20,000 bases of DNA from sequence record SRR31156797_5453; one strand, given 5' to 3'. The notes beneath the pieces are model-generated. The model ran no database searches and had not been told where the DNA came from. It saw only the letters and a list, made by a program, of their open reading frames with translations. This document shows, one piece after another, positions 3,947-16,115 of the stretch (position 1 is its first letter; each line of letters starts with the position of its first letter). A program made the translations under genes and the position numbers.

Positions 3947-4522
3947 ATGGAACAAGTTAGGAACTTTGTTCATTACACGAAAGAAAAAACAGTGGAAAGC
4001 TGGCAGGCTTTGTTAGATGATCTATACCGAGATCAGAAAAAAACGATTTTCACGCTGATCGGAGGCATTCTTTTCGCGCTGGTTTTTGCAGGCTTGATCG
4101 TTTTTTCTCAAAATCGCATCAACGCCTCTTTAGTGGATCGAATCGCTTTCGACAAGTTACCTTCGGAAAAAGTACAGCCATTACCATATTTGACAGCTGA
4201 TAAGACGATTCGAGAAACAAGAGCGATTTCTGTGATGTACAGTAAACCAAATGGCCCACAGCTGGATCAAGTGTTTGATCTGATCCAAGCACAGGAAGAC
4301 GAAATGAATCGAACATTTTTTTATTATCCGATCGTCTATGACGTGGCATTTTTCTCCAATGAATATGACATTGATCCTGATAAAGTGACCTTTGTCTTCT
4401 ATGAAGAAGGAGTCGAGAAAAATCGCTTTACTTTTGATTCATTTGAGCAGCCAACGACGGAATTCATCCCAGAATTGAATCGTTTACCCATGTGGACGAT
4501 TCGTTCTTCTGCCAATGATTGA
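3947..4522 (+). CDS. Hypothetical single-pass membrane protein, possible thioredoxin-like fold without CxxC
   Basis: 191 aa, RBS AAAGGTGG, one hydrophobic segment (IFTLIGGILFALVFAGLIVF). The C-terminal YDI....TFVFYEEGVEKNRF pattern recalls the thioredoxin fold. No cysteines. The fold call is inference. Confidence 0.65.
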   Translation: MEQVRNFVHYTKEKTVESWQALLDDLYRDQKKTIFTLIGGILFALVFAGLIVFSQNRINASLVDRIAFDKLPSEKVQPLPYLTADKTIRETRAISVMYSKPNGPQLDQVFDLIQAQEDEMNRTFFYYPIVYDVAFFSNEYDIDPDKVTFVFYEEGVEKNRFTFDSFEQPTTEFIPELNRLPMWTIRSSAND

Positions 4523-4525
4523 TAA

Positions 4526-4552
4526 AAAAATCTGACAATTTGACAGAAAATT
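4526..4552 (+). promoter_or_regulatory. Candidate tandem CodY boxes abutting the -35 of the transporter promoter
   Basis: ATTTGACAGAAAATT (4538-4552, 3 mismatches) and AAAAATCTGACAATT (4526-4540, 4 mismatches) versus consensus AATTTTCWGAAAATT. Confidence 0.4.
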
Positions 4553-4553
4553 G

Positions 4554-4582
4554 TTGACGTTTTTTTATCAATAGGCTAAACT
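4554..4582 (+). promoter_or_regulatory. Sigma-A promoter of the Trp-leader/ABC transporter operon
   Basis: TTGACG (4554-4559)-N17-TAAACT (4577-4582). Confidence 0.8.
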
Positions 4583-4626
4583 GAATTCAATCAAGAAAGA
4601 AAACAAGTTGAGAAGGAGGAACAATC

Positions 4627-4680
4627 ATGAAACTATTTATTCCATTGCAAGTGAAATCATGGCAAAACTGGCGTAGATAG
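4627..4680 (+). CDS. Putative Trp-sensing leader peptide MKLFIPLQVKSWQNWRR (17 aa)
   Basis: Strong RBS AAGGAGGA (4613-4620) 6 nt before the ATG. TGG codons at 4660-4662 and 4669-4671. Lies between the promoter and attenuator hairpins upstream of a TrpX-family transporter. Too short for the ORF track. Confidence 0.85.
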   Translation: MKLFIPLQVKSWQNWRR

Positions 4681-4766
4681 TTGTATTGATGGGACCTCAT
4701 TCCATAGATACAACTTTTTAGAGAACCTTCTAAAGTGCTGTATCTATGCTGGTAGTTGAATTTATC

Positions 4767-4797
4767 GCCGCATAGGACAACCTTCTATGCGGCTTTT
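4767..4797 (+). terminator. Leader terminator T1 (conditional)
   Basis: Perfect 9-bp stem GCCGCATAG (4767-4775)/CTATGCGGC (4785-4793) followed by TTTTGCTT (short U-tract). Confidence 0.65.
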
Positions 4798-4805
4798 GCT
4801 TACTT

Positions 4806-4838
4806 GCAATTGCCGTCACATAGGCAGTTGCTTTTTTT
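4806..4838 (+). terminator. Leader terminator T2 (conditional)
   Basis: Stem GCAATTGCC (4806-4814)/GGCAGTTGC (4823-4831) with one G-U pair, followed by T7. Confidence 0.8.
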
Positions 4839-4899
4839 GTTCTCAAAAACCGTAAAAACGAAAACATGAAAAACTTAAGCAGAAAAAGGAGAATGAAAA

Positions 4900-5952
4900 A
4901 TGAAAAACAAGGGATTAATTGCATCGGTTGCCGTTATTTTATTATTTTTAGGAGCGACCTTTGTCTATCAGTTAGGAATGAGAAGTGGGACCAATCAAGC
5001 CAGTGAGACTTCGGAACCAGTAGAAAAAGCTGAAAAAACAGTTGGGATCCTGCAGTTTGTCAGTCATGAAGCGTTAGATGCGATCACCGAGGGGATCAAA
5101 GAAGGCCTTAAAGAATCAGGCTATACCGAAGGGGACAACTTGACGATCGAATTCCAAAACGGCCAAGCGGATCAAAGTAAATTGGCAACGATGAGTCAGC
5201 AGCTGCTAAATAAAGATGCCGACGTTTTGGTTGGGGTAGCAACACCCGCAGCACAAGCGTTGGCGAATGTCACTCAGGATGTACCAATCGTTTTAGGAGC
5301 GGTCACTGATCCAGTTGGGGCAAATCTCGTGGCAGATATGGATCAACCCGGCGGAAATATCACTGGTGTTTCAGATAAAGCACCCGTCGCTGCGCAAATC
5401 AAACTAGCAAAAGATTTGCTACCGGAGGCAAAAACAGTCGGCATTTTGTATTCTTCGACCGAAGACAATTCGAAATACCAAGTGGCAGAAGCAGAAGCTG
5501 CTGCCGAAGAAAATGGCTTGACCAGCAAATCGTATGCCGTTCCTTCAAGTAACGAAATTGCTCAAATGGTGCAAGTGATGGCACGAGAAGTCGACTTTAT
5601 CTATATTCCGTTAGATAATACGATTGCAAACGCAATGCAGACGGTAGTACAAGAAGCCAATAAATCAAAAACGCCCATCATCACGTCTGTTGATACGATG
5701 GTGGAACAAGGCGGCTTAGCAACGGTTGGGCAAGATCAATTTACGATTGGGGTCGAAACCGGGAAGATGGTGGCAGCAATTCTTGACGGGACGGCCGAAC
5801 CTGCGACAACGCCGATCTATACATTCAGCGATGGCGAAACGATCATTAATGAAACACAAGCGCAGTTATTGGGAATCACTATCCCAGAAAACCTCAAAGA
5901 CGAGGCAAAATTGATTACAACGACACCGGAAAGTGAAGCAAGTGATGAGTAA
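4900..5952 (+). CDS. trpX: Tryptophan/aromatic amino acid ABC transporter substrate-binding protein (TrpX family)
   Basis: Motifs VGILQFVSHEALD, NGQADQSKL, VATPAAQAL, GAVTDPVGA, GGNITGVSD, EDNS, PLDNTIANA. N-terminal hydrophobic anchor without a lipobox Cys. RBS AAAGGAG. The Trp-rich leader supports the specificity. Confidence 0.85.
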   Translation: MKNKGLIASVAVILLFLGATFVYQLGMRSGTNQASETSEPVEKAEKTVGILQFVSHEALDAITEGIKEGLKESGYTEGDNLTIEFQNGQADQSKLATMSQQLLNKDADVLVGVATPAAQALANVTQDVPIVLGAVTDPVGANLVADMDQPGGNITGVSDKAPVAAQIKLAKDLLPEAKTVGILYSSTEDNSKYQVAEAEAAAEENGLTSKSYAVPSSNEIAQMVQVMAREVDFIYIPLDNTIANAMQTVVQEANKSKTPIITSVDTMVEQGGLATVGQDQFTIGVETGKMVAAILDGTAEPATTPIYTFSDGETIINETQAQLLGITIPENLKDEAKLITTTPESEASDE

Positions 5953-6027: not shown

Positions 6028-6915
6028 ATGATGATTGTTTCAGCAATAGGGCAAGGGCTACTTTGGGGAATCCTGGGATTAGGGATTTTTATGACCTATC
6101 GTATTTTGAATTTCCCGGATATGACGACGGAAGGGTCCTTTCCGTTAGGCGGTGCTGTCTGTGTGACAGCGATCACCCATGGGGTGTCGCCCGTCTTAGC
6201 GACTTTGTTAGGAGTATTGGCTGGGATGTGTGCGGGCTGTGTGACAGGACTTCTTTATACAAAAGGCAAAATTCCCGTGATTTTAGCAGGTATTTTGGTG
6301 ATGTCTTCATTGAACTCGGTCATGCTGTTTGTGATGCGCTCACCAAACCTCTCTTTATTAAACCAACCGAAAATTCAAGATTTTTTTACTAGAATGAATT
6401 TACCGAATTATTATGATACGGTGATTATCGGATTGATCATGGTCTTGTTGATTGGGGGCGTCTTGGTTTACTTTTTCCATACCAACTTGGGTCAAGCTTA
6501 TATTGCTACCGGGGATAATGAACACATGGCCAAGTCAATGGGAATCAATACGGATCGAATGAAAATCATTGGACTGATCGTCTCCAATGGCGTGATCGCA
6601 CTCTCAGGCGCATTGATCGCTCAAAACGACGGCTACGCCGACATAAGCAAGGGAATCGGTGTGATCGTTATCGGACTGGCGTCAATCATCATTGGTGAGG
6701 TATTATATGGTGAATTGACCTTGCTGGAACGTCTGATCGCTATCGTGATCGGCAGCATTATCTACCAATTATTGATACTATTTGTGATCAAAGCTGGATT
6801 TGATACGACTTACTTGAAGATCTTCTCTGCAATCGTCTTGACGATCTGCCTGTTGATCCCTCAATTTAAACAAGCCTTGCATCTACGCACTGGTTTTGAA
6901 ACGGAGGATGAATAA
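6028..6915 (+). CDS. ABC transporter permease (partner of TrpX)
   Basis: Multi-pass hydrophobic protein with RILNFPDMTTEGSFPLGGAV, ATGDNEHMA and GVIVIGLASIIIGE. RBS GGAGG. Confidence 0.92.
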   Translation: MMIVSAIGQGLLWGILGLGIFMTYRILNFPDMTTEGSFPLGGAVCVTAITHGVSPVLATLLGVLAGMCAGCVTGLLYTKGKIPVILAGILVMSSLNSVMLFVMRSPNLSLLNQPKIQDFFTRMNLPNYYDTVIIGLIMVLLIGGVLVYFFHTNLGQAYIATGDNEHMAKSMGINTDRMKIIGLIVSNGVIALSGALIAQNDGYADISKGIGVIVIGLASIIIGEVLYGELTLLERLIAIVIGSIIYQLLILFVIKAGFDTTYLKIFSAIVLTICLLIPQFKQALHLRTGFETEDE

Positions 6916-7673
6916 TGTTAGCCTTAAAAAAAGCCTTTAAAGTTGTCGGCAACGGACCGAATGAGAAAAAAGTGCTCTTGAATAAAATCGATCTTTCTTT
7001 AAAACCAGGAGAATTTGTCACGGTCGTCGGAGGAAATGGCGCCGGCAAAAGTACGCTATTCAACTGCATCTCAGGCACCATGCCCTTGACGAGTGGGCAA
7101 GTGATGATCGATGATCAAAACGTGACCGCACTTTCGGAAGAAAAACGTGCCCGCTTTTTGGCACGTGTCTTCCAAGACCCGAAAATGGGCACTGCTCCCC
7201 GTATGACAGTGGCAGAAAATCTGCTGTTAGCACAAAAAAGAGGGCAAAAACGGTCACTTGGTCTTCGACAACTCCAAGGACAAAGGGAAATGTTCTTTGC
7301 GCTTTGTAAAGAAATCGGCAATGGGTTGGAAAATCATTTGGATACGCCAACGGGCAGTTTATCTGGTGGTCAACGACAGGCACTAAGTTTATTGATGGCA
7401 ACGATTCAAACACCAAAACTGTTGTTGCTAGATGAACATACGGCTGCGTTAGACCCAAAGACCTCCAAACAGCTGATGCAAATCACTGCAAGACGCGTGG
7501 AAGAACAAAACCTAACTTGTCTCATGATCACCCATCGGATGGAAGATGCATTAAAATACGGAGACCGCCTGATCCTGCTCAGAAAAGGGGAAATCGTCAA
7601 GGATCTTTCAGCAGATGAAAAAGCTCGCTTAAGTTTACCAGAACTGTTACTGTTCTTTGAAGACGACTTATAA
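6915..7673 (+). CDS. ABC transporter ATP-binding protein
   Basis: Walker A GGNGAGKST, signature LSGGQRQ, Walker B LLLLDEH, H-loop ITH. TAATG coupling to the permease. Confidence 0.95.
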   Translation: MLALKKAFKVVGNGPNEKKVLLNKIDLSLKPGEFVTVVGGNGAGKSTLFNCISGTMPLTSGQVMIDDQNVTALSEEKRARFLARVFQDPKMGTAPRMTVAENLLLAQKRGQKRSLGLRQLQGQREMFFALCKEIGNGLENHLDTPTGSLSGGQRQALSLLMATIQTPKLLLLDEHTAALDPKTSKQLMQITARRVEEQNLTCLMITHRMEDALKYGDRLILLRKGEIVKDLSADEKARLSLPELLLFFEDDL

Positions 7674-7738: not shown

Positions 7739-7767
7739 TTGACATCTTTCAAAGTTAAACCTATACT
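7739..7767 (+). promoter_or_regulatory. Sigma-A promoter of the aro operon, with upstream A-rich (UP-like) tract
   Basis: TTGACA (7739-7744)-N17-TATACT (7762-7767). Confidence 0.9.
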
Positions 7768-7802: not shown

Positions 7803-7868
7803 ATGCAAAAATTATTGCTAACGAACCCCACACAACTGAATAAATATTACTTTAGCTATTTTAGATAG
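7803..7868 (+). CDS. Putative Tyr/Phe-sensing leader peptide MQKLLLTNPTQLNKYYFSYFR (21 aa)
   Basis: Purine-rich GGAGCGAAGGA before ATG 7803. Codons TAT TAC TTT AGC TAT TTT AGA TAG give 3 Tyr and 2 Phe in the last 7 sense codons. Lies upstream of the operon that makes Tyr and Phe. Confidence 0.88.
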   Translation: MQKLLLTNPTQLNKYYFSYFR

Positions 7869-7945
7869 GTTTGTATTCATGAAGGCATGGGTACAAACGC
7901 TAAGTTTGTATCTATGATGGCTAGAGCATTTCGTAATGAATTCGC

Positions 7946-7983
7946 AGCCACGTAGATCGTAAAATCTATAGTGGCTATTTTTT
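7946..7983 (+). terminator. Leader terminator T1 (conditional)
   Basis: AGCCACGTAGAT/ATCTAT(A)GTGGCT stem with loop CGTAAA, followed by ATTTTTT. Confidence 0.75.
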
Positions 7984-8020
7984 ATATTCACATATCGGCG
8001 CTGTCGCTATGTAATGTTTG

Positions 8021-8067
8021 AAGGTGTTCACTGTAGATTCTTAAATTTACGGTGGACATCTTTTTTT
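8021..8067 (+). terminator. Leader terminator T2 (conditional)
   Basis: 19-bp stem with 4 G-U pairs, AAGGTGTTCACTGTAGATT/AATTTACGGTGGACATCTT, loop CTTA, T7 at 8061-8067, just before the aroE RBS. Confidence 0.85.
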
Positions 8068-8086
8068 GTTGAAAGGAATGAACCAG

Positions 8087-8956
8087 ATGAAACAAATGAT
8101 AACCGGTCACACACGGTTGGCGGCACTATTTGCCAAACCAGCCAAACACAGCATCTCTCCAGCGATGCACAATCTTTCTTTTGAAGAACAAGGGATCGAC
8201 GCCGTGTATCTGGCCTTTGATGTTGAGCCGGATGATTTAGCCGCTAGTATCCAAAGCATCCGTCAGTTGGATCTCTTAGGTGTCAATCTATCAATGCCCC
8301 ATAAAATGGCAGCAGTACCGTTGATGGATGAATGCTCACCAGCAGCCGAGCTGATCGGCGCAATCAATACAATCGTCAATCAAGAGGGGCGATTGATTGG
8401 GCACAATACAGATGGTATCGGCTTTATGCGCGCACTTGAAGACATTCAAGTGTCGATCATTGGAAAAACGATGACTGTGATCGGTGCAGGTGGAGCAGCG
8501 ACAGCAATCATTAGTCAAGCTGCACTAGATGGTGTCAAAACAATCCGTGTCTTTAACCGCAAGGATGAGTTTTATCCAATCATCCAGGAAAAATTGACAC
8601 AGATCGCAGAAAAGACCGCCTCTGAAATCACATTAACGGATTTAGAAGATCAGACGGCTCTAAAAACAGCCATCGATCAAAGCAGTCTTTTAGTTAATGC
8701 TACTGGCGTGGGGATGAAGTCGAATGATACGGTAAGTCCTCTAAAAGACAAAACACTCTTGCGGGAATCATTAGCTGTCTATGATGTCATCTATAATCCA
8801 AGAGAAACGCAGCTTTTGAAAGATGCGAAAGAAGTCGGTGCCAAAACTGCAAACGGCTTAAGCATGTTGCTGTATCAAGGTGCAGCTGCATTTAAACTTT
8901 GGACAGGCCAAGAAATGCCTGTTGAAAAAGTAAAAGCACTTATTGAGTCCATGTAA
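8087..8956 (+). CDS. aroE: Shikimate dehydrogenase
   Basis: HSISPAMHN, NLSMPHK, GAINTI, GHNTDGIGF, IGAGGAA, NATGVGM, DVIYNPRET, GLSMLLYQGA. Start moved from 8066 to ATG 8087 because RBS AAAGGA is at 8072-8077. Confidence 0.93.
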   Translation: MKQMITGHTRLAALFAKPAKHSISPAMHNLSFEEQGIDAVYLAFDVEPDDLAASIQSIRQLDLLGVNLSMPHKMAAVPLMDECSPAAELIGAINTIVNQEGRLIGHNTDGIGFMRALEDIQVSIIGKTMTVIGAGGAATAIISQAALDGVKTIRVFNRKDEFYPIIQEKLTQIAEKTASEITLTDLEDQTALKTAIDQSSLLVNATGVGMKSNDTVSPLKDKTLLRESLAVYDVIYNPRETQLLKDAKEVGAKTANGLSMLLYQGAAAFKLWTGQEMPVEKVKALIESM

Positions 8957-8996
8957 AAAATAAAAAAATTAGAAAAAACGAAAGTAGGAAGAAAAA

Positions 8997-10022
8997 ATGA
9001 TCGTAATTATGAAACCAGGCGCTACGCCAGAACAAGTTGAAGTTGTTGTAACTAGAATCAAAAAAGAAGGCTTAGATGTTCAAGTCAACCAAGGAAAAGA
9101 ACAGGTCGTTATCGGGTTAAAAGGGGATACACGCCGCATCCAAGATGTTGCTTTTCGCAGCTACGAAGGTGTCGAAGATGCCATTCGGATCTCAAATACT
9201 TACAAATTGACCTCTCGTGAGTTCCATCCGCAAGATACGGTTGTGGATGTAGATGGTGTGAAAATCGGTGACGGCAACTTTGTTACGATGGCTGGTCCAT
9301 GTTCGATTGAAGGCTTAGACCAAATTCGTGAATGTGCCCGAATCGCCAAAGCTGGTGGTGCACAAATCTTACGTGGTGGTGCCTTCAAACCCCGCACGTC
9401 GCCTTACGCATTCCAAGGGCTTGAAGAAGAAGGGCTAAAATACATTCGCCAAGCTGCTGATGAAACTGGCATGAAAATCATCACAGAAGTCATGGACGAA
9501 GGACATATCGATATGGTGGCGGAATACAGTGATATTTTGCAGATTGGTGCTCGGAACATGCAAAACTTCAAATTGCTAGCTGCCGTTGGAAAAACTGGGA
9601 AACCAATTGGCCTTAAACGAGGCATCTCAGGCACGATCGACGAATGGTTGAATGCAGCGGAATACATCGCTGTTCAAGATAAAAGTGAAGTGATTTTCAT
9701 TGAACGTGGGATCCGAACTTACGAAACAGCAACCCGTAATACCTTTGATCTAAGTGCAGTACCAATCATCAAAAAACTGAGCCACTTCCCAATCATCGTC
9801 GATCCTAGTCATGGAACAGGTATCTGGGATCTCGTACCACCAATGGCAAGAGCGGGTGTTGCTGCCGGCGCCGATGGGATGATCGTAGAGATCCATCCAG
9901 ATCCAGCCAATGCTTGGTCTGATGGTCCTCAATCACTTAACGAAAAAACGTACATGAACATGATGAAAGAAGTCCATATCATGGAAAAAGCGATGAAAGA
10001 AATCAAAGCGTTGCAAGACTAA
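8997..10022 (+). CDS. aroF: DAHP synthase (class I-beta, with N-terminal ACT/ferredoxin-like regulatory domain)
   Basis: MIVIMKP N-terminal regulatory domain, [57 protein letters not shown]. Confidence 0.95.
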
Positions 10023-10058
10023 GCGTGAAGACAACCAATAAAAGAGGTGCAAAAATCA

Positions 10059-11114
10059 ATGTTACACATTCACTTAGAAGACCATTCCTATGATATCCTC
10101 ATTAAACGAGGGGCGTTTCAAAAAGTCGGAACCTGGGTGCAACAGTTGTGGGACAAACAGCGCATTGCCGTCATTACAGACAGCAATGTCGCACCCCTGT
10201 ATGGCGGACAAATCGTCGATTCCATAACCGCTGCCGGGTTTGAAGCGACACTGTTAATCGTACCAGCCGGCGAAAAAAGCAAATCACTAGAGCAAGCAGC
10301 TAGTTTATATGATGGTCTTGCCCAATTCGGAATGACCAGAAGCGATGGGATCATTGCCCTTGGTGGCGGTGTGATCGGTGATCTCGGAGGATTTGTTGCT
10401 TCTACTTATATGCGCGGCATTGATTTCTTGCAGATTCCGACGACGTTATTGGCACAGGTCGATTCAAGTATCGGCGGAAAAACAGCTGTAAATACTGGCA
10501 GTGCCAAGAATCTCGTTGGCACGTTTGCCCAACCAGCCGGTGTGATGATCGATCCAGATTTACTTGAAAGTTTGCCGCTTAAACGCGTCCAAGAAGGCAT
10601 TGCTGAAATCATCAAGTCAGCCGCTATTGCAGATCCTGAACTTTGGCAAACGTTAGCAGGTTTGAATGATGAAGCCGATTTGTTGGCCCACGCTGAAAAT
10701 GTGATCACAGCTTCTTTAAAGGTTAAACAAAAAGTAGTGGAAGAAGACCCCTTTGATCATGGTAGTCGTCTGACACTGAACTTCGGTCATACGATCGGTC
10801 ATGGCTTAGAAAGAACGGCTGCTTTTGAGACAAGTCACGGAGAAGGCGTTGCGATGGGGATGATTATGATCACCCGACATGCAGAAGTCACCGGATTAAC
10901 ACCAAAAGGTACGACCCAGCAACTTACAGAAATGGTTGAGAAGTTTCACTTGCCGATTACACCAAGGGAAATAGATAAAGAGCAATTATACCAAGCAATC
11001 ACTCATGATAAAAAAGCCCGCGGGCAACAATTGAAGATTATTCTATTAGAAGCGATCGGTCAGGCGAAAATCGTGACGATCCCGACTGAAAAAATCAAAG
11101 ACTACCTAGTATAA
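10059..11114 (+). CDS. aroB: 3-dehydroquinate synthase
   Basis: GEKSKS, ALGGGVIGDLGGF, PTTLLAQVDSSIGGKTAVN, KNLVG, LNFGHTIGH, HGEGVA. Start placed at ATG 10059 (RBS GAGGTG 10044-10049). Confidence 0.96.
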   Translation: MLHIHLEDHSYDILIKRGAFQKVGTWVQQLWDKQRIAVITDSNVAPLYGGQIVDSITAAGFEATLLIVPAGEKSKSLEQAASLYDGLAQFGMTRSDGIIALGGGVIGDLGGFVASTYMRGIDFLQIPTTLLAQVDSSIGGKTAVNTGSAKNLVGTFAQPAGVMIDPDLLESLPLKRVQEGIAEIIKSAAIADPELWQTLAGLNDEADLLAHAENVITASLKVKQKVVEEDPFDHGSRLTLNFGHTIGHGLERTAAFETSHGEGVAMGMIMITRHAEVTGLTPKGTTQQLTEMVEKFHLPITPREIDKEQLYQAITHDKKARGQQLKIILLEAIGQAKIVTIPTEKIKDYLV

Positions 11115-11133
11115 GAAAGGAAGGTAACGGATC

Positions 11134-12300
11134 ATGCGTTATATTACAGCAGGCGAATCACATGGACCAGAGTTGACCGCCATTATCGAAGGGTTACCGG
11201 CAGGATTGCCATTAACAGCGGAAGACATCAATTTTGAATTAGCGAGACGACAAACCGGCTATGGTCGTGGGGGACGGATGTTGATTGAAAAAGACCAAGT
11301 CCGTATCACTTCCGGTATCCGTCATGGAAAAACATTAGGCTCTCCTGTGACTTTAGTGGTCGAGAACAAAGATTGGAAAAATTGGACCAAGGTCATGGCA
11401 ATCGAAGAGGTACCAGAAAAAGACCGCAAACTACGACGAGTGGCACGACCAAGACCTGGTCATGCTGACTTGGTCGGCGGCATGAAATACCACCATCAAG
11501 ATCTACGAAACGTCCTGGAACGTTCATCTGCCCGGGAAACGACTATGCGGGTAGCCATCGGCGCAATCGCGAAGAAAATTTTGAAGGAGCTTGGCATCGA
11601 TGTGGCAGGTCATGTAACGATGTTAGGCGGCATCAAAGCAGAAATTCCAGAAGGCTTGACTGTCAAAGAAATCGCACAACGCTCTGAAGCCTCGGAAGTA
11701 AGAGTCTTAGATCCATCTGTCGAGGAAGAAATTAAACAGTTGATCGATCAAACGAAGAAAAATGGTGATACGATCGGCGGCGTAGTGGAAGTGCTTGTTG
11801 GCGGCGTTCCTGCTGGTCTTGGCAGTTACGTGCAATGGGACAAAAAACTTGATGCGAAGATTGCCCAAGCCGTGGTCAGTATCAACGCCTTTAAAGGTGC
11901 TGAGTTCGGTGTTGGCTTTGAGGCAGGTGTTTTACCGGGTTCTAAAGTCATGGATGAGATTTTATGGGACGAACAACGGGGCTACACCCGTCGCAGCAAC
12001 AACCTAGGCGGGTTTGAAGGTGGCATGACGAACGGTGAACCAATCGTGGTTCGTGGTGTTATGAAGCCGATCCCAACCTTGTACAAGCCATTGCAAAGTG
12101 TGGATATCGACAGCAAAGAACCGTATAAAGCAAGCGTCGAACGCTCAGATAGCACCGCTGTACCAGCAGCCAGTGTTGTTTGTGAGAGTGTGGTGGCGAC
12201 AGTGGTGGCCAATGAACTATTAGAAAAGTTCCCAAGTGATTCATTCGCAGAATTGACTGCATCTGTTCAAGCGTATCGAGAATACTTGTTAACCTACTGA
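11134..12300 (+). CDS. aroC: Chorismate synthase
   Basis: [47 protein letters not shown]. Confidence 0.97.
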
Positions 12301-12344
12301 TTAAAGAACCAGCAAAAATTCCAGTAGAAATGAGGATTCTTTTC

Positions 12345-13430
12345 ATGAACCAAAATATCTTTGTCGCCGGTCTAGGGTTGATCGGCGCTTCCTTAGCAAA
12401 ATGTATCAAAACGTCACATCCCCAAACCTATCTAATGGGGTGGGATCACTGTCGCAAAACCAATGAGATCGCATTAGCAACAAGATTAGTAGATAAAGTG
12501 CCCCCTTCATTTTCTGAAGGTGCTGTCCGTGCCGACGTGATTCTGTTGGCATTGCCGGTAGAAATCACCAAAAAATATCTTGCCGAACTGGGGGCACTTT
12601 CATTAAAGCCTTCGGTCCTGGTAACAGACACCGGCAGTACCAAAGCAGAAATCACGCAATTCGCCGAGTCCTTTTCCTTTGATTTTATTGGGGGCCATCC
12701 GATGGCTGGCTCTCATAAATCAGGGATCACAGCAGCCGATGAGAACCTTTTCGAGAATGCTTACTATATCTTTACACCGACGAAAAGTCAGCGGATGGAA
12801 GAGCTGCAAGAGCTTTTTCGCGGCACTAGAGCCAAATATGTGGCGCTTGCGCCAAAAGAGCATGATCAAATCACAGGGATGTTGAGCCATTTGCCCCATA
12901 TTATTGCTTCGGGATTAGTCAATCAGGCAGATGCCTTCAACCACGAACACCCTAGAGCGCAGCAACTTGCAGCAGGCGGTTTTCGCGATATCACTCGCAT
13001 TGCTTCTTCAGATCCTCGTATGTGGACCGATATCTTATTGAGTAATCGACAGGAGCTGCTGCAGCTGATCGATGAGTGGCAAAAACAAATGACGACCATG
13101 GCTCACTGGTTGCAGAAAAAAGACGAAAGGGCGATCTTTCGGTTTTTTGAATCCGCGAAGGAAACACGGGATCAATTGCCGGTTCATCAAAATGGGGCGA
13201 TCCCAGCATTCTATGATCTATTCATCGATGTACCGGATCATCCCGGCGTTGTCGCTGAAGTGACGGGGCTATTGAGCGAACATCAGCTCTCTTTGATCAA
13301 CTTGAAAATTCTTGAAACTCGAGAAGATATTATTGGTGTTTTACAGATTTCATTCAAAACGCAAAATGATTTGCTGCAAGCAGAGCAGCTGATTCAAAAA
13401 AAGACGACCTATTCATGTCGAAAAAAATAG
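12345..13430 (+). CDS. tyrA: Prephenate dehydrogenase with C-terminal ACT domain
   Basis: GLGLIGAS, TDTGSTK, GGHPMAGS, HD....SHLPH, AGGFRDITRIA, ACT motif VPDHPGVVAEV. Start placed at ATG 12345 (RBS GAGG 12332-12335). Confidence 0.95.
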   Translation: MNQNIFVAGLGLIGASLAKCIKTSHPQTYLMGWDHCRKTNEIALATRLVDKVPPSFSEGAVRADVILLALPVEITKKYLAELGALSLKPSVLVTDTGSTKAEITQFAESFSFDFIGGHPMAGSHKSGITAADENLFENAYYIFTPTKSQRMEELQELFRGTRAKYVALAPKEHDQITGMLSHLPHIIASGLVNQADAFNHEHPRAQQLAAGGFRDITRIASSDPRMWTDILLSNRQELLQLIDEWQKQMTTMAHWLQKKDERAIFRFFESAKETRDQLPVHQNGAIPAFYDLFIDVPDHPGVVAEVTGLLSEHQLSLINLKILETREDIIGVLQISFKTQNDLLQAEQLIQKKTTYSCRKK

Positions 13431-15232
<1,802 letters not shown>

Positions 15233-15233
15233 A

Positions 15234-16115
15234 ATGAAGATTGGTTATTTAGGACCGAAAAGTTCCTTTACGCATTTAGCTGCGCAAGAAGCTTATCCGG
15301 AAAATACCTGTATCCCCTATGGATCGATTCCGCTTTGTATTCAAGCGCTAGCTAACGGCGTGATCGATCGCGCGGTCGTTCCGAACGAGAACTCATTAGA
15401 AGGATCTGTTCATGCCACGATTGATACGCTCTTTCGTCAAAATCAGTTGAGCATCGAACAGGAAGTTATTTTACCGATCAATCATCAATTGTTAGTTTCT
15501 CAGCAATCAGCAAAAGACAACCGTCCCATCACTAAGATAATTTCTCATCCGCAAGCCTTAGCGCAATGTGCCGACTTCATCGAAGCCCGATTTGCTGGAG
15601 CTACTGTTGAGGCGGTTGCTTCCACAACGACTGCAGCAGCCTACGTAGCAAAACATCCAGAAGAAGCAGTTGCGGCGATTGCTTCCAAAGAAGCGGCATT
15701 GGCCTATCAATTAACGATCAAAAAAACCAATATTCAAGATGTTGCCTTTAATCAAACCCGTTTTTGGGTTTTGACGAAGAAAGCAGCAAACACCCAATTA
15801 CCAGAGCAGACTGCTGAGAAAGCAACGATTTTTGTGACGCTCCCGGCAAATCGACCGGGGATCTTGCACAAAATCTTAGCAACCTTTGGCTGGCGAGAAA
15901 TTGATTTAAGCAAAATTGAATCGCGGCCTTCAAAAACCACCTTAGGGGAATACTTTTTCGTGATCGATCTGGTGATGGACAAGCCGTGGCAACTGATTGT
16001 AAATGCCTTTGAAGAGATTCAGTTGTTGGGTGGTCAAGTCCATCTTCTCGGCGTGTATTCCGTAAATGTTGTTGAGGAAGTGACAAAAAATGACTCAAGT
16101 CAAAATAAAATTTAG
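15234..16115 (+). CDS. pheA: Prephenate dehydratase (monofunctional, C-terminal ACT domain)
   Basis: YLGP..SFT, VP.ENSLEGSV, SHPQALAQC, NQTRF, LSKIESRP. Start placed at ATG 15234, just after the aroK stop. Confidence 0.95.
   Translation: MKIGYLGPKSSFTHLAAQEAYPENTCIPYGSIPLCIQALANGVIDRAVVPNENSLEGSVHATIDTLFRQNQLSIEQEVILPINHQLLVSQQSAKDNRPITKIISHPQALAQCADFIEARFAGATVEAVASTTTAAAYVAKHPEEAVAAIASKEAALAYQLTIKKTNIQDVAFNQTRFWVLTKKAANTQLPEQTAEKATIFVTLPANRPGILHKILATFGWREIDLSKIESRPSKTTLGEYFFVIDLVMDKPWQLIVNAFEEIQLLGGQVHLLGVYSVNVVEEVTKNDSSQNKI

Follow-up and report, generated by a model that had tools for sequence, protein, structure and literature searches.

Known also as SRC-39-1, the trpB motif is an orphan "strong riboswitch candidate" of which the published account counts over 900 representatives, found among Firmicutes and Fusobacteria (Narunsky et al. 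2024, Nucleic Acids Res 52:5152; PMC11109978). As described in the main text of that report, its commonest neighbour is an "uncharacterized ABC transporter" and sometimes trpB, covariation is found in two hairpins, and an antiterminator is placed in the right shoulder of the first hairpin, P1; the authors add that a classic attenuator and a protein factor are both explanations that they "cannot rule out". Here we examine a 20,000-nucleotide stretch of DNA from sequence record SRR31156797_5453 (referred to as the window), in which a match to the Rfam model of the trpB motif (RF04312) lies between a short open reading frame (ORF) with tryptophan (Trp) codons and an operon for a TrpX-type ATP-binding cassette (ABC) importer. 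It is highly probable, judging from sequence comparisons, that this leader is a ribosome-mediated Trp attenuator, and the published trpB motif is best explained as merely the 3′ half of such a device. Whereas the main-text account of the motif describes no upstream ORF, the locus examined here has a conserved ORF with Trp codons and a relay hairpin, and its functional unit begins approximately 75 nucleotides (nt) further 5′.

The leader ORF had been proposed in a first-pass annotation, which described a near-perfect ribosome-binding site, a peptide of 17 residues with Trp at two of the last six sense codons, and a start about 45 nt past the −10 box. These elements can all be read from the sequence: the Shine-Dalgarno (SD) element AAGGAGGA is in place before the ATG, the reading frame agrees, and the −10 box end at 4582 and the ATG at 4627 give a gap of exactly 45 nt. 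The codons are atg aaa cta ttt att cca ttg caa gtg aaa tca TGG caa aac TGG cgt aga TAG, with Trp specified by codon 12 (4660-4662) and codon 15 (4669-4671). Two Trp codons among 17 are only mildly unusual when taken alone (about 1% by a rough estimate that assumes a Trp frequency of 1%). Thus, the case for the leader ORF rests mainly on conservation.

Related loci were collected from the nearest comparison genome (G001) and from other genomes of the same family, order and phylum. RF04312 matches are present in 133 of 134 genomes of the window's family (E ≤ 0.01) and in 90 of 151 genomes sampled from the order (E ≤ 0.001). The sample of 151 genomes from the phylum yielded matches in two, one of which is G001, and the only match seen outside the order is a weak one before an SNF-family symporter (L060). 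A total of 120 loci were inspected, comprising 60 from the search returns and 60 lower-scoring matches, and these were sorted into 104 of Trp type, nine of tyrosine/phenylalanine (Tyr/Phe) type, one of histidine (His) type, the weak match before the symporter, and five apparent false matches. The five that were set aside (L081, L108, L111, L117 and L118) have no SD-led ORF of the leader type and resemble ordinary matches to a hairpin plus terminator; in L081 and L117 there is only a chance SD-preceded ORF lacking Trp or other regulatory codons.

The 104 Trp-type loci and the window together provide 105 leaders, which represent at least six families of Lactobacillales. ORFs were sought blindly, in that any ATG no more than 110 nt 5′ of the conserved TGGC was accepted in any frame if an SD core stood 4-13 nt before it. 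In all 105 leaders, an SD-preceded ATG is in frame with the TGG and the frame is open through it (104 by script, L096 by eye), and the candidates divide into 110 in frame versus 4 out of frame, where chance would put one third in frame. The distance from ATG to TGG is 7-17 codons in 104 of these leaders and 27 codons in the remaining one, for which the script took the longest in-frame candidate. The resulting 93 distinct peptides are 14-37 residues long, with N-terminal parts that vary in both sequence and length, and not one of the 1239 residues located before the conserved Trp is itself Trp. At the nucleotide level, an alignment of 104 sequences has an invariant T in the first TGG, a following GGCAA that is at least 90% conserved, and variable columns on the 5′ side. 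The sequences after the first Trp form 38 different C-terminal tails (WQSH, WQGQ, WQSQNR, WQSWRRSLYR and others) with stop codons at varied places, the commonest being WQNWRR-stop in 25 of the 93 distinct peptides.

The expectation that Trp codons would be conserved in orthologous leaders therefore holds in full for the first TGG, which is present in 105 of 105 leaders, and in part for the second, whose position is kept as W-x-x-W in 73; the others have W-x-W (one leader) or a single Trp (31 leaders). Overall, by the yardstick of sequence conservation, a small Trp-containing leader gene is confirmed as real and conserved. The leader also has two of the features by which attenuators are recognized, namely a short ORF with its own ribosome-binding site that is conserved as an ORF, and conserved codons for an amino acid related to the operon.

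Downstream of the ORF, RF04312 is the lone meaningful match in an Rfam E-value scan of positions 4450-4950. The published layout is present in the window: there are two hairpins, the second is an intrinsic terminator (T1), and an antiterminator lies in the right shoulder of P1. The placement also agrees, in that the element occupies the 5′ untranslated region before an amino-acid-type ABC transporter, the PF04392 gene of which starts 96 nt after the match. The likeness to the published motif thus extends from the full-model alignment, P1, antiterminator and terminator to the gene context, including relatives that stand before trpB-like genes.

Beyond these two hairpins, the strands of the leader are alternately complementary to one another (...UAUCUA..., ...UAGAUA..., GUUGUAU, CAUAGAUACAAC, GUAUCUAUGCUGG, CCGCAUAG and CUAUGCGG). 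The minimum-energy fold of the full-length RNA from the window (z = −7.2 versus shuffles) holds P1, T1 and a hairpin within the ORF (H0) that encloses the Trp codons. The H0 pairing is also seen by eye in leaders of the L009 type; H0 is the predicted state of the untranslated RNA and possibly an RNA-polymerase pause hairpin. Other helices computed from the same strands compete with P1 and T1 (Table 1). These include a relay hairpin (H2) between the segment that starts at the last stop-codon base and the left arm of P1, a helix between the 3′ end of the ORF and the right arm of P1 (H1), and the antiterminator between the right arm of P1 with its extension and the left arm of T1.

Pairing was counted on a MAFFT alignment of 104 sequences that was not fitted to any structure. 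T1 is about 96% paired with changes on both sides in 8 of 10 pairs, and P1 is 97.9% paired (5 of 10 pairs changed on both sides), although its apical part is variable and only 68% paired. The antiterminator reaches 91.9% (4 of 8 pairs), with one pair distributed as CG 50, UA 23 and UG 17, and H1 reaches 85.8% (6 of 12). For H2, 89.2% of cells are paired in the first segment and 87.1% in the second, 7 of 12 pairs have changed on both sides, and one pair of the second segment occurs as AU 52, CG 14, GC 13 and UA 2. When the 3′ partners are slid by 1-3 columns, pairing falls to 14-57%, and the slid controls for H2 are 34-50% paired. Because the sequences are related, shuffle controls overstate significance, and the slid controls and double changes are the more useful guides. 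The RNAalifold consensus of the 104-sequence alignment consists of P1 and the terminator only, and the alternative helices were each checked singly.

Table 1. Features of the Trp leader, the aro leader and the neighbouring genes, in window coordinates.
Feature	Position	Strand	Basis or remark
Sigma-70-like promoter, TTGACG (4554), 17-nt spacer, TAAACT (ends 4582)	4554-4582	+	consensus match alone
Leader Shine-Dalgarno AAGGAGGA	4613-4620	+	read from sequence
Leader ORF, 17 sense codons and TAG, peptide MKLFIPLQVKSWQNWRR	4627-4680	+	sequence and conservation
H0, 4631-4640 with 4673-4682	4631-4682	+	fold, −16.7 kcal/mol
H1, 4668-4679 with 4741-4752		+	covariation
H2 relay hairpin, 4680-4693 with 4701-4714	4680-4714	+	−12.9 kcal/mol and covariation
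RF04312 trpB motif (P1 and terminator)	4701-4804	+	50.8 bits, E 2.8e-6, model positions 1-107
P1, left arm 4703-4714, apical stem 4716-4735, right arm 4737-4748		+	RF04312 match; 97.9% paired
Antiterminator, 4744-4752 with 4768-4775	4744-4775	+	fold and covariation
Intrinsic terminator T1, 4767-4776 with 4784-4793, then UUUUGCU	4767-4799	+	about 96% paired
Stem-loop T2 (4806-4831), then UUUUUUU	4806-4838	+	−15.2 kcal/mol
PF04392 substrate-binding protein, TrpX type	4900-5952	+	Pfam
Permease of TrpX-type operon	6028-6915	+	gene scan
ABC ATPase of TrpX-type operon	6915-7673	+	gene scan
Aro promoter-like site, TTGACA-17-TATACT	7739-7767	+	read from sequence; SD follows
Aro leader ORF, peptide MQKLLLTNPTQLNKYYFSYFR	7803-7868	+	three Tyr and two Phe codons in last seven sense codons
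RF02863, Enterococcus sRNA 2410	7852-8042	+	85.8 bits
Aro leader terminator	near 7946-7984	+	
Second strong hairpin of aro leader	8020-8063	+	
Complete aro operon	8066-16115		follows transporter operon

The genes that follow these leaders provide a further line of evidence. Behind the 120 inspected loci, 115 downstream genes were found and 63 of them were scanned against Pfam; in this set, Trp-type leaders precede PF04392 proteins, TrpB-like pyridoxal phosphate enzymes (L001, L033, L035, L051 and L073) and a TrpP transporter (L100). The genes OG1RF_11022-11024 of E. faecalis, which are homologous to those in the window, are annotated as a tryptophan ABC transporter, trpX, in the published entry (PMC11925238). 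The first-pass annotation had taken the leader as support for Trp as the transported substrate, and this view gains support both from these genes and from sister leaders that carry Tyr/Phe or His codons on the same scaffold.

One such sister leader lies 3 kb 3′ of the Trp leader in the window itself, ahead of the aro operon, and its ORF overlaps the start of a match to RF02863, the Enterococcus sRNA 2410. The RF02863 stretch has in addition a weak match to RF04312 (26.4 bits, E 0.11), and it resembles the Trp leader in its strand motifs AGAUAGGUUUGUAU and GUUUGUAUCUAUGAUGG, which are followed by a terminator. Sampling of 61 genomes across the order turned up RF02863 in 34, and all 30 of the RF02863 loci returned have a leader ending in a run of the [Y/F]YFSYFR type (24 by a strict SD pattern and six by eye); leaders of the Tyr/Phe type are also found at nine weaker RF04312 matches. 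Among the 23 of these 30 RF02863 loci that were scanned, the following gene encodes a shikimate dehydrogenase in 12 cases, a 3-deoxy-D-arabino-heptulosonate 7-phosphate (DAHP) synthase in one, and a paralogous PF04392 protein in 10. Taken together, Tyr/Phe leaders precede genes for shikimate dehydrogenase, chorismate synthase, DAHP synthase or a paralogous PF04392 protein, the last of these at L099, L101, L109, L110, L113, L121, L126, L130, L139, L140, L142, L144, L146 and L148-L150. Since the PF04392 paralogues are split between Trp and Tyr/Phe leaders, the two transporters are predicted to carry different aromatic substrates.

There is also a His version, in which an NHHNHH leader stands before a HisZ-like gene (PF13393) at L112, which is the same locus as L151 (G158:C1:1987594-1987854), and at L152 and L153. 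It was found in three of 26 genomes of one family whose copies are 92-100% identical to one another, and this version is therefore anecdotal. For the his genes of Lactobacillales, the regulators listed by Ashniev et al. 2022 (PMC9413887), in the part of that survey concerned with them, are T-boxes and not attenuators.

These codon swaps bear directly on the interpretation under which the trpB motif was first catalogued. If the motif were a metabolite riboswitch, its P1 region would bind Trp or a relative, the ligand would stabilize P1 and thereby favour the terminator, and the ORF would be irrelevant. The published ranking as a strong riboswitch candidate, with its two covarying hairpins and its antiterminator placed in P1's right shoulder (PMC11109978, main-text account), is consistent with this view, as are the 97.9% pairing of P1 and an RNAalifold consensus limited to P1 and the terminator. 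A riboswitch needs no ORF, however, yet a Trp-codon ORF is found in 105 of 105 leaders. Furthermore, the same scaffold carries Tyr/Phe or His codons before aro and his genes, such that it is the codons, rather than the RNA, that specificity goes with. The identity of the codons thus tracks the regulated genes on a constant scaffold, which is the expectation for ribosome-mediated attenuation but not for a metabolite riboswitch. In P1, conservation falls on the nucleotides that have to pair in turn with three other strands; its apical part varies, and no conserved internal loop that might form a binding pocket was seen. We therefore regard a riboswitch as improbable, and the trpB motif most likely senses Trp through a stalling ribosome, in the manner of the classic trp attenuator.

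A specific version of such a mechanism can be proposed from the positions of the helices, and we judge it to be somewhat better than an even prospect. In this model, the ORF at 4627-4680 would encode the leader peptide of an attenuator that governs the TrpX-type importer operon, and the RNA would form a chain of six strands: the 5′ part of the ORF (strand 1, 4631-4640), the end of the ORF plus 14 nt past its stop codon (strand 2, 4673-4693), the left and right arms of P1 (strand 3, 4701-4714; strand 4, 4737-4752), and the two terminator arms (strand 5, 4767-4776; strand 6, 4784-4793). In the untranslated RNA, strands 1 and 2, 3 and 4, and 5 and 6 would pair, and transcription would terminate. 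When charged tRNA-Trp is in short supply, the ribosome would stall with a UGG codon (4660 or 4669) in its A site and break the pairing of strands 1 and 2, leaving the segment past the stop codon uncovered to capture strand 3 as soon as that strand is made (H2). Strand 4, now free, would pair with strand 5 as an antiterminator, no terminator would form, and the transporter genes would be transcribed. When Trp is plentiful, the ribosome would reach the stop codon and cover strand 2, P1 would form between strands 3 and 4, and the terminator would halt transcription. What the computations show is the ORF, its in-frame conservation, the alternative helices with their covariation, and the agreement between codon identity and operon function; translation of the ORF, stalling, the kinetics by which the helices succeed one another and responsiveness to Trp are inferred.

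Predicted folds of partial transcripts are consistent with such a choice. In the window, the energies are −12.9 kcal/mol for H2, −17.8 for P1 (the apical stem, formed in both states, has −3.8) and −17.8 for the terminator. When the RNA 5′ of 4675 is removed, corresponding to the first UGG in the A site, the transcript as it lengthens has H2 as its minimum-energy fold from 4716 on, and the antiterminator joins it from 4778 until the 3′ arm of the terminator emerges. Across the alignment, a 5′ end 15 nt past the first Trp codon makes the antiterminator the minimum-energy fold in 94 of 104 sequences, and a 5′ end 15 nt past the stop codon makes P1, and with it the terminator state, form in 94 of 104. 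Both predicted states are found in 85 of the 104 sequences, and the window has the same two position-dependent states as this majority. In full-length RNA, the terminator forms in 101 of 104 sequences.

A short Trp-containing leader peptide, with a ribosome that decides the fate of transcription downstream, also brings TnaC to mind. TnaC detects free Trp by way of the nascent chain at its stop codon, and induction takes place through Rho when Trp is high. By analogy, W-x-x-W-R-R-stop together with free Trp might arrest the ribosome on the stop codon, where it would mask the relay segment and favour termination at high Trp. The striking conservation of WQNWRR-stop in 25 of the 93 distinct peptides would fit such a sensor, and so would the polarity, since the operon would be off at high Trp. 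The 38 tails, however, differ in length and in stop position, their conserved nucleotides pair and covary with downstream strands, and runs of Tyr/Phe or His codons, the signature of starvation sensing, are found in the sister leaders. The varied tails, movable stops and covariation with downstream partners make nascent-peptide sensing very unlikely at this locus, where both the tail and the stop position vary and the terminator is intrinsic, unlike in TnaC.

Least probable of all is a trans-acting factor, either a TRAP-like protein or uncharged tRNA-Trp acting as in a T-box, that would choose between terminator and antiterminator: S. suis trpX is described as being under a T-box (PMC9382623) and the leader holds several UAG/GAG triplets of the kind given as the TRAP-type unit (PMC3064811), but the spacing of these triplets is irregular and they fall within the alternating helices, an Rfam scan of positions 4450-4950 (E ≤ 10) finds neither a T-box nor another known cis-regulatory family besides RF04312, a gathering-score Rfam scan of the whole window likewise finds none, and TRAP (PF02081) was not found in G001, a 100% complete genome, by a search that did find the B. 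subtilis control.

Ribosome-mediated attenuation by Trp codons is thus the reading that best accounts for the leader, and as first proposed in the earlier annotation it draws support from three sources: the conserved Trp codons, the covarying terminator, antiterminator and relay downstream of them, and the gene context. Several observations nevertheless count against this reading or limit its detail. The RF04312 score in the window (50.8 bits) is below the gathering score of 59, and by that measure the locus falls outside the family; the corresponding score in G001 is 49.2 bits, whereas other genera of the window's family score 59-71.6 bits, and these higher-scoring relatives and the window align column by column. 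A single Trp codon, as in 31 of 105 leaders, is a thin sensor, and the second codon is dispensable in those cases. Moreover, the second TGG sits in a helix and is swapped for other codons with compensating changes, and nucleotide conservation at this position is therefore partly structural. The near-invariant CAA (Gln) codon after the first TGG (4663-4665) is not accounted for by an attenuator.

The folding predictions carry similar cautions. If the full 5′ leader is kept and a 30-nt ribosome footprint is masked, the window folds into P1 at every ribosome position, because the SD region pairs with the loop region of H2. The switch is seen only when the RNA behind the ribosome is excluded, and the model therefore relies on a kinetic, co-transcriptional assumption; this is the usual assumption of attenuation models, and the switch is not proven by thermodynamics. 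In 19 of 104 sequences the pair of predicted states is absent, and seven of these 19 stay "on" with the ribosome at the stop codon, as exemplified by leaders with the early-stop WQSH tail. A more general difficulty concerns the host, for Johnson and colleagues reportedly found in 2020 that transcription and translation are largely uncoupled in Bacillus subtilis, which would make the mechanism harder to operate in Firmicutes. Against this can be set the ribosome-mediated attenuators that have been described in Firmicutes for antibiotic-responsive genes, BmrCD and mef/mel, in the accounts of PMC4191407 and PMC4335068.

A second terminator-like hairpin (T2) stands directly after T1 and would limit read-through if it were constitutive. 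At least 67 of 103 distinct related loci have such a hairpin at the same position, with changes that compensate one another; the count was made with a crude detector to which long loops are invisible. The aro leader has one as well (8020-8063). The right arm of T1, once freed, can pair in the window with the left arm of T2 (−14.6 versus −15.2 kcal/mol for T2 itself). As a general means of sequestering T2 in the "on" state, this pairing was rejected: it works in the window and is weak across loci, barely exceeding shuffled controls, in that T2 persists in 51 of 67 "on" folds, the corresponding numbers out of 67 being 62 for "off" folds and 60 for shuffled controls. The attenuator model does not explain the role of T2, which may be a fail-safe, a second checkpoint or an element coupled to T1.

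The proposed attenuator can be compared with several known systems. With trpL and the other classical leaders (his, phe, thr and leu) it shares an SD-led short ORF with cognate codons, mutually exclusive terminator and antiterminator, a fold that would be set by the position of the ribosome, and the expected polarity in which starvation turns the operon on. There is no kinship in sequence family, in that RF00513 (Trp_leader) is absent both among the 17 matches at E ≤ 10 in positions 4450-4950 and from the gathering-score scan of the window. Six alternating strands are found here versus four in trpL, and what a ribosome that has reached the stop codon would cover is the relay segment rather than the antiterminator strand, which P1 would then sequester. 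Further differences are that the Trp codons occur as W-x-x-W or singly and not in tandem, that the controlled genes encode an importer, and that the host belongs to the Firmicutes. The trpXYZ operon of S. suis is of the same kind as the one in the window, and it is described as repressed by Trp via a T-box (PMC9382623). It follows that induction at low Trp is the expected polarity here as well, and the two leaders also share a choice between terminator and antiterminator. As that report presents the S. suis leader, however, it is approximately 680 nt long and uses a specifier codon to sense uncharged tRNA-Trp without translation, whereas no T-box match is found in the window.

The Enterococcus sRNA 2410 invites a similar comparison. 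Described by Sinel et al. 2017, Sci Rep 7:11067 (PMC5593968), it was detected by RNA-seq and Northern analysis as two transcripts in E. faecium, as that report presents it. It differs from the Trp leader in being filed as a trans-acting small RNA gene, in its Tyr/Phe codons, and in its location before aro genes or a paralogous PF04392 transporter. Most likely, sRNA_2410 is the terminated leader of the aro leader-peptide attenuator. The two transcripts seen on Northern blots (PMC5593968) would fit terminated leader RNA, possibly ending at two successive terminators.

The RNA element itself is already catalogued and attenuation by leader peptides is textbook knowledge; the mechanism proposed for the catalogued element is the new part. 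No description of the leader peptide, of the six-strand relay layout or of the trpB motif and sRNA_2410 being a single scaffold with exchanged codons was found in the open-licence literature searched. For an orphan class with more than 900 representatives according to its main-text account (PMC11109978), the proposal offers a concrete and testable mechanism, and the hunt for a ligand could be redirected accordingly. Similarly, the Northern-validated sRNA_2410 of E. faecium can be re-read as the terminated leader of an aromatic-amino-acid attenuator. The leaders would also label genes, pointing to Trp for the TrpX-type importer in enterococci and their relatives and predicting Tyr/Phe for its PF04392 paralogue. 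Given the frequency of RF04312 in the family (133 of 134 genomes) and the order (90 of 151), leader peptides that sense amino acids would be widespread in Lactobacillales. The six-strand relay is a variation on the four-strand attenuator of textbooks, and it may find use as a small building block for synthetic designs.

Usual accounts of Firmicutes have them depend on T-boxes, riboswitches and RNA-binding proteins. A more speculative proposal, which we consider doubtful at present, is that Lactobacillales carry one modular scaffold whose specificity has been switched by swaps of leader codons (Trp, Tyr/Phe and His). A single stalled ribosome would flip its whole chain of alternating strands, which would extend into T2, with one stall defeating two serial terminators. 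If this were true, the trpB motif riboswitch candidate and sRNA_2410 would be the same device, the substrates of two paralogous PF04392 importers (Trp versus Tyr/Phe) could be assigned from their leaders alone, and classical ribosome-coupled attenuation would rank as a major sensor of amino acids in one Firmicutes branch, where that task has been credited to T-boxes.

Some additional features of the locus and its relatives deserve mention. A consensus scan of positions 4480-4920 finds TTGACG-17-TAAACT as the single promoter-like site. For the 191-residue ORF at 3947-4522, directly 5′ of this promoter, Pfam gives no match at E ≤ 0.001. The 18 RNA runs that contain this stretch are metatranscriptome contigs, from which 3′ ends, strand and level are not readable; three of these contigs (X1, X13 and X2) span the leader into trpX, and that of X3 ends at 4926. 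The gene trpA is present in G001, and the organism is thus probably not a Trp auxotroph, which leaves the argument for the attenuator unaffected.

Within the leader ORFs, a Q-L-N motif (CAAYUGAAU; approximately 4645-4656) is seen by eye a few codons before the first TGG and is frequent in leaders of both the Trp and the Tyr/Phe type. In some genera this stretch appears, again by eye, to be complementary to the linker between P1 and the terminator. Like the CAA codon, the motif is not explained by the attenuator model, and neither a feature of the peptide nor a feature of the RNA is favoured as its basis. Finally, in L103 (G185:C35) a Trp-type leader encoding MQFSNVQLNTWQSW stands before an oligopeptide-type binding protein (SBP_bac_5) and not before a PF04392 protein, and this may represent a peptide importer that has been recruited to Trp supply.

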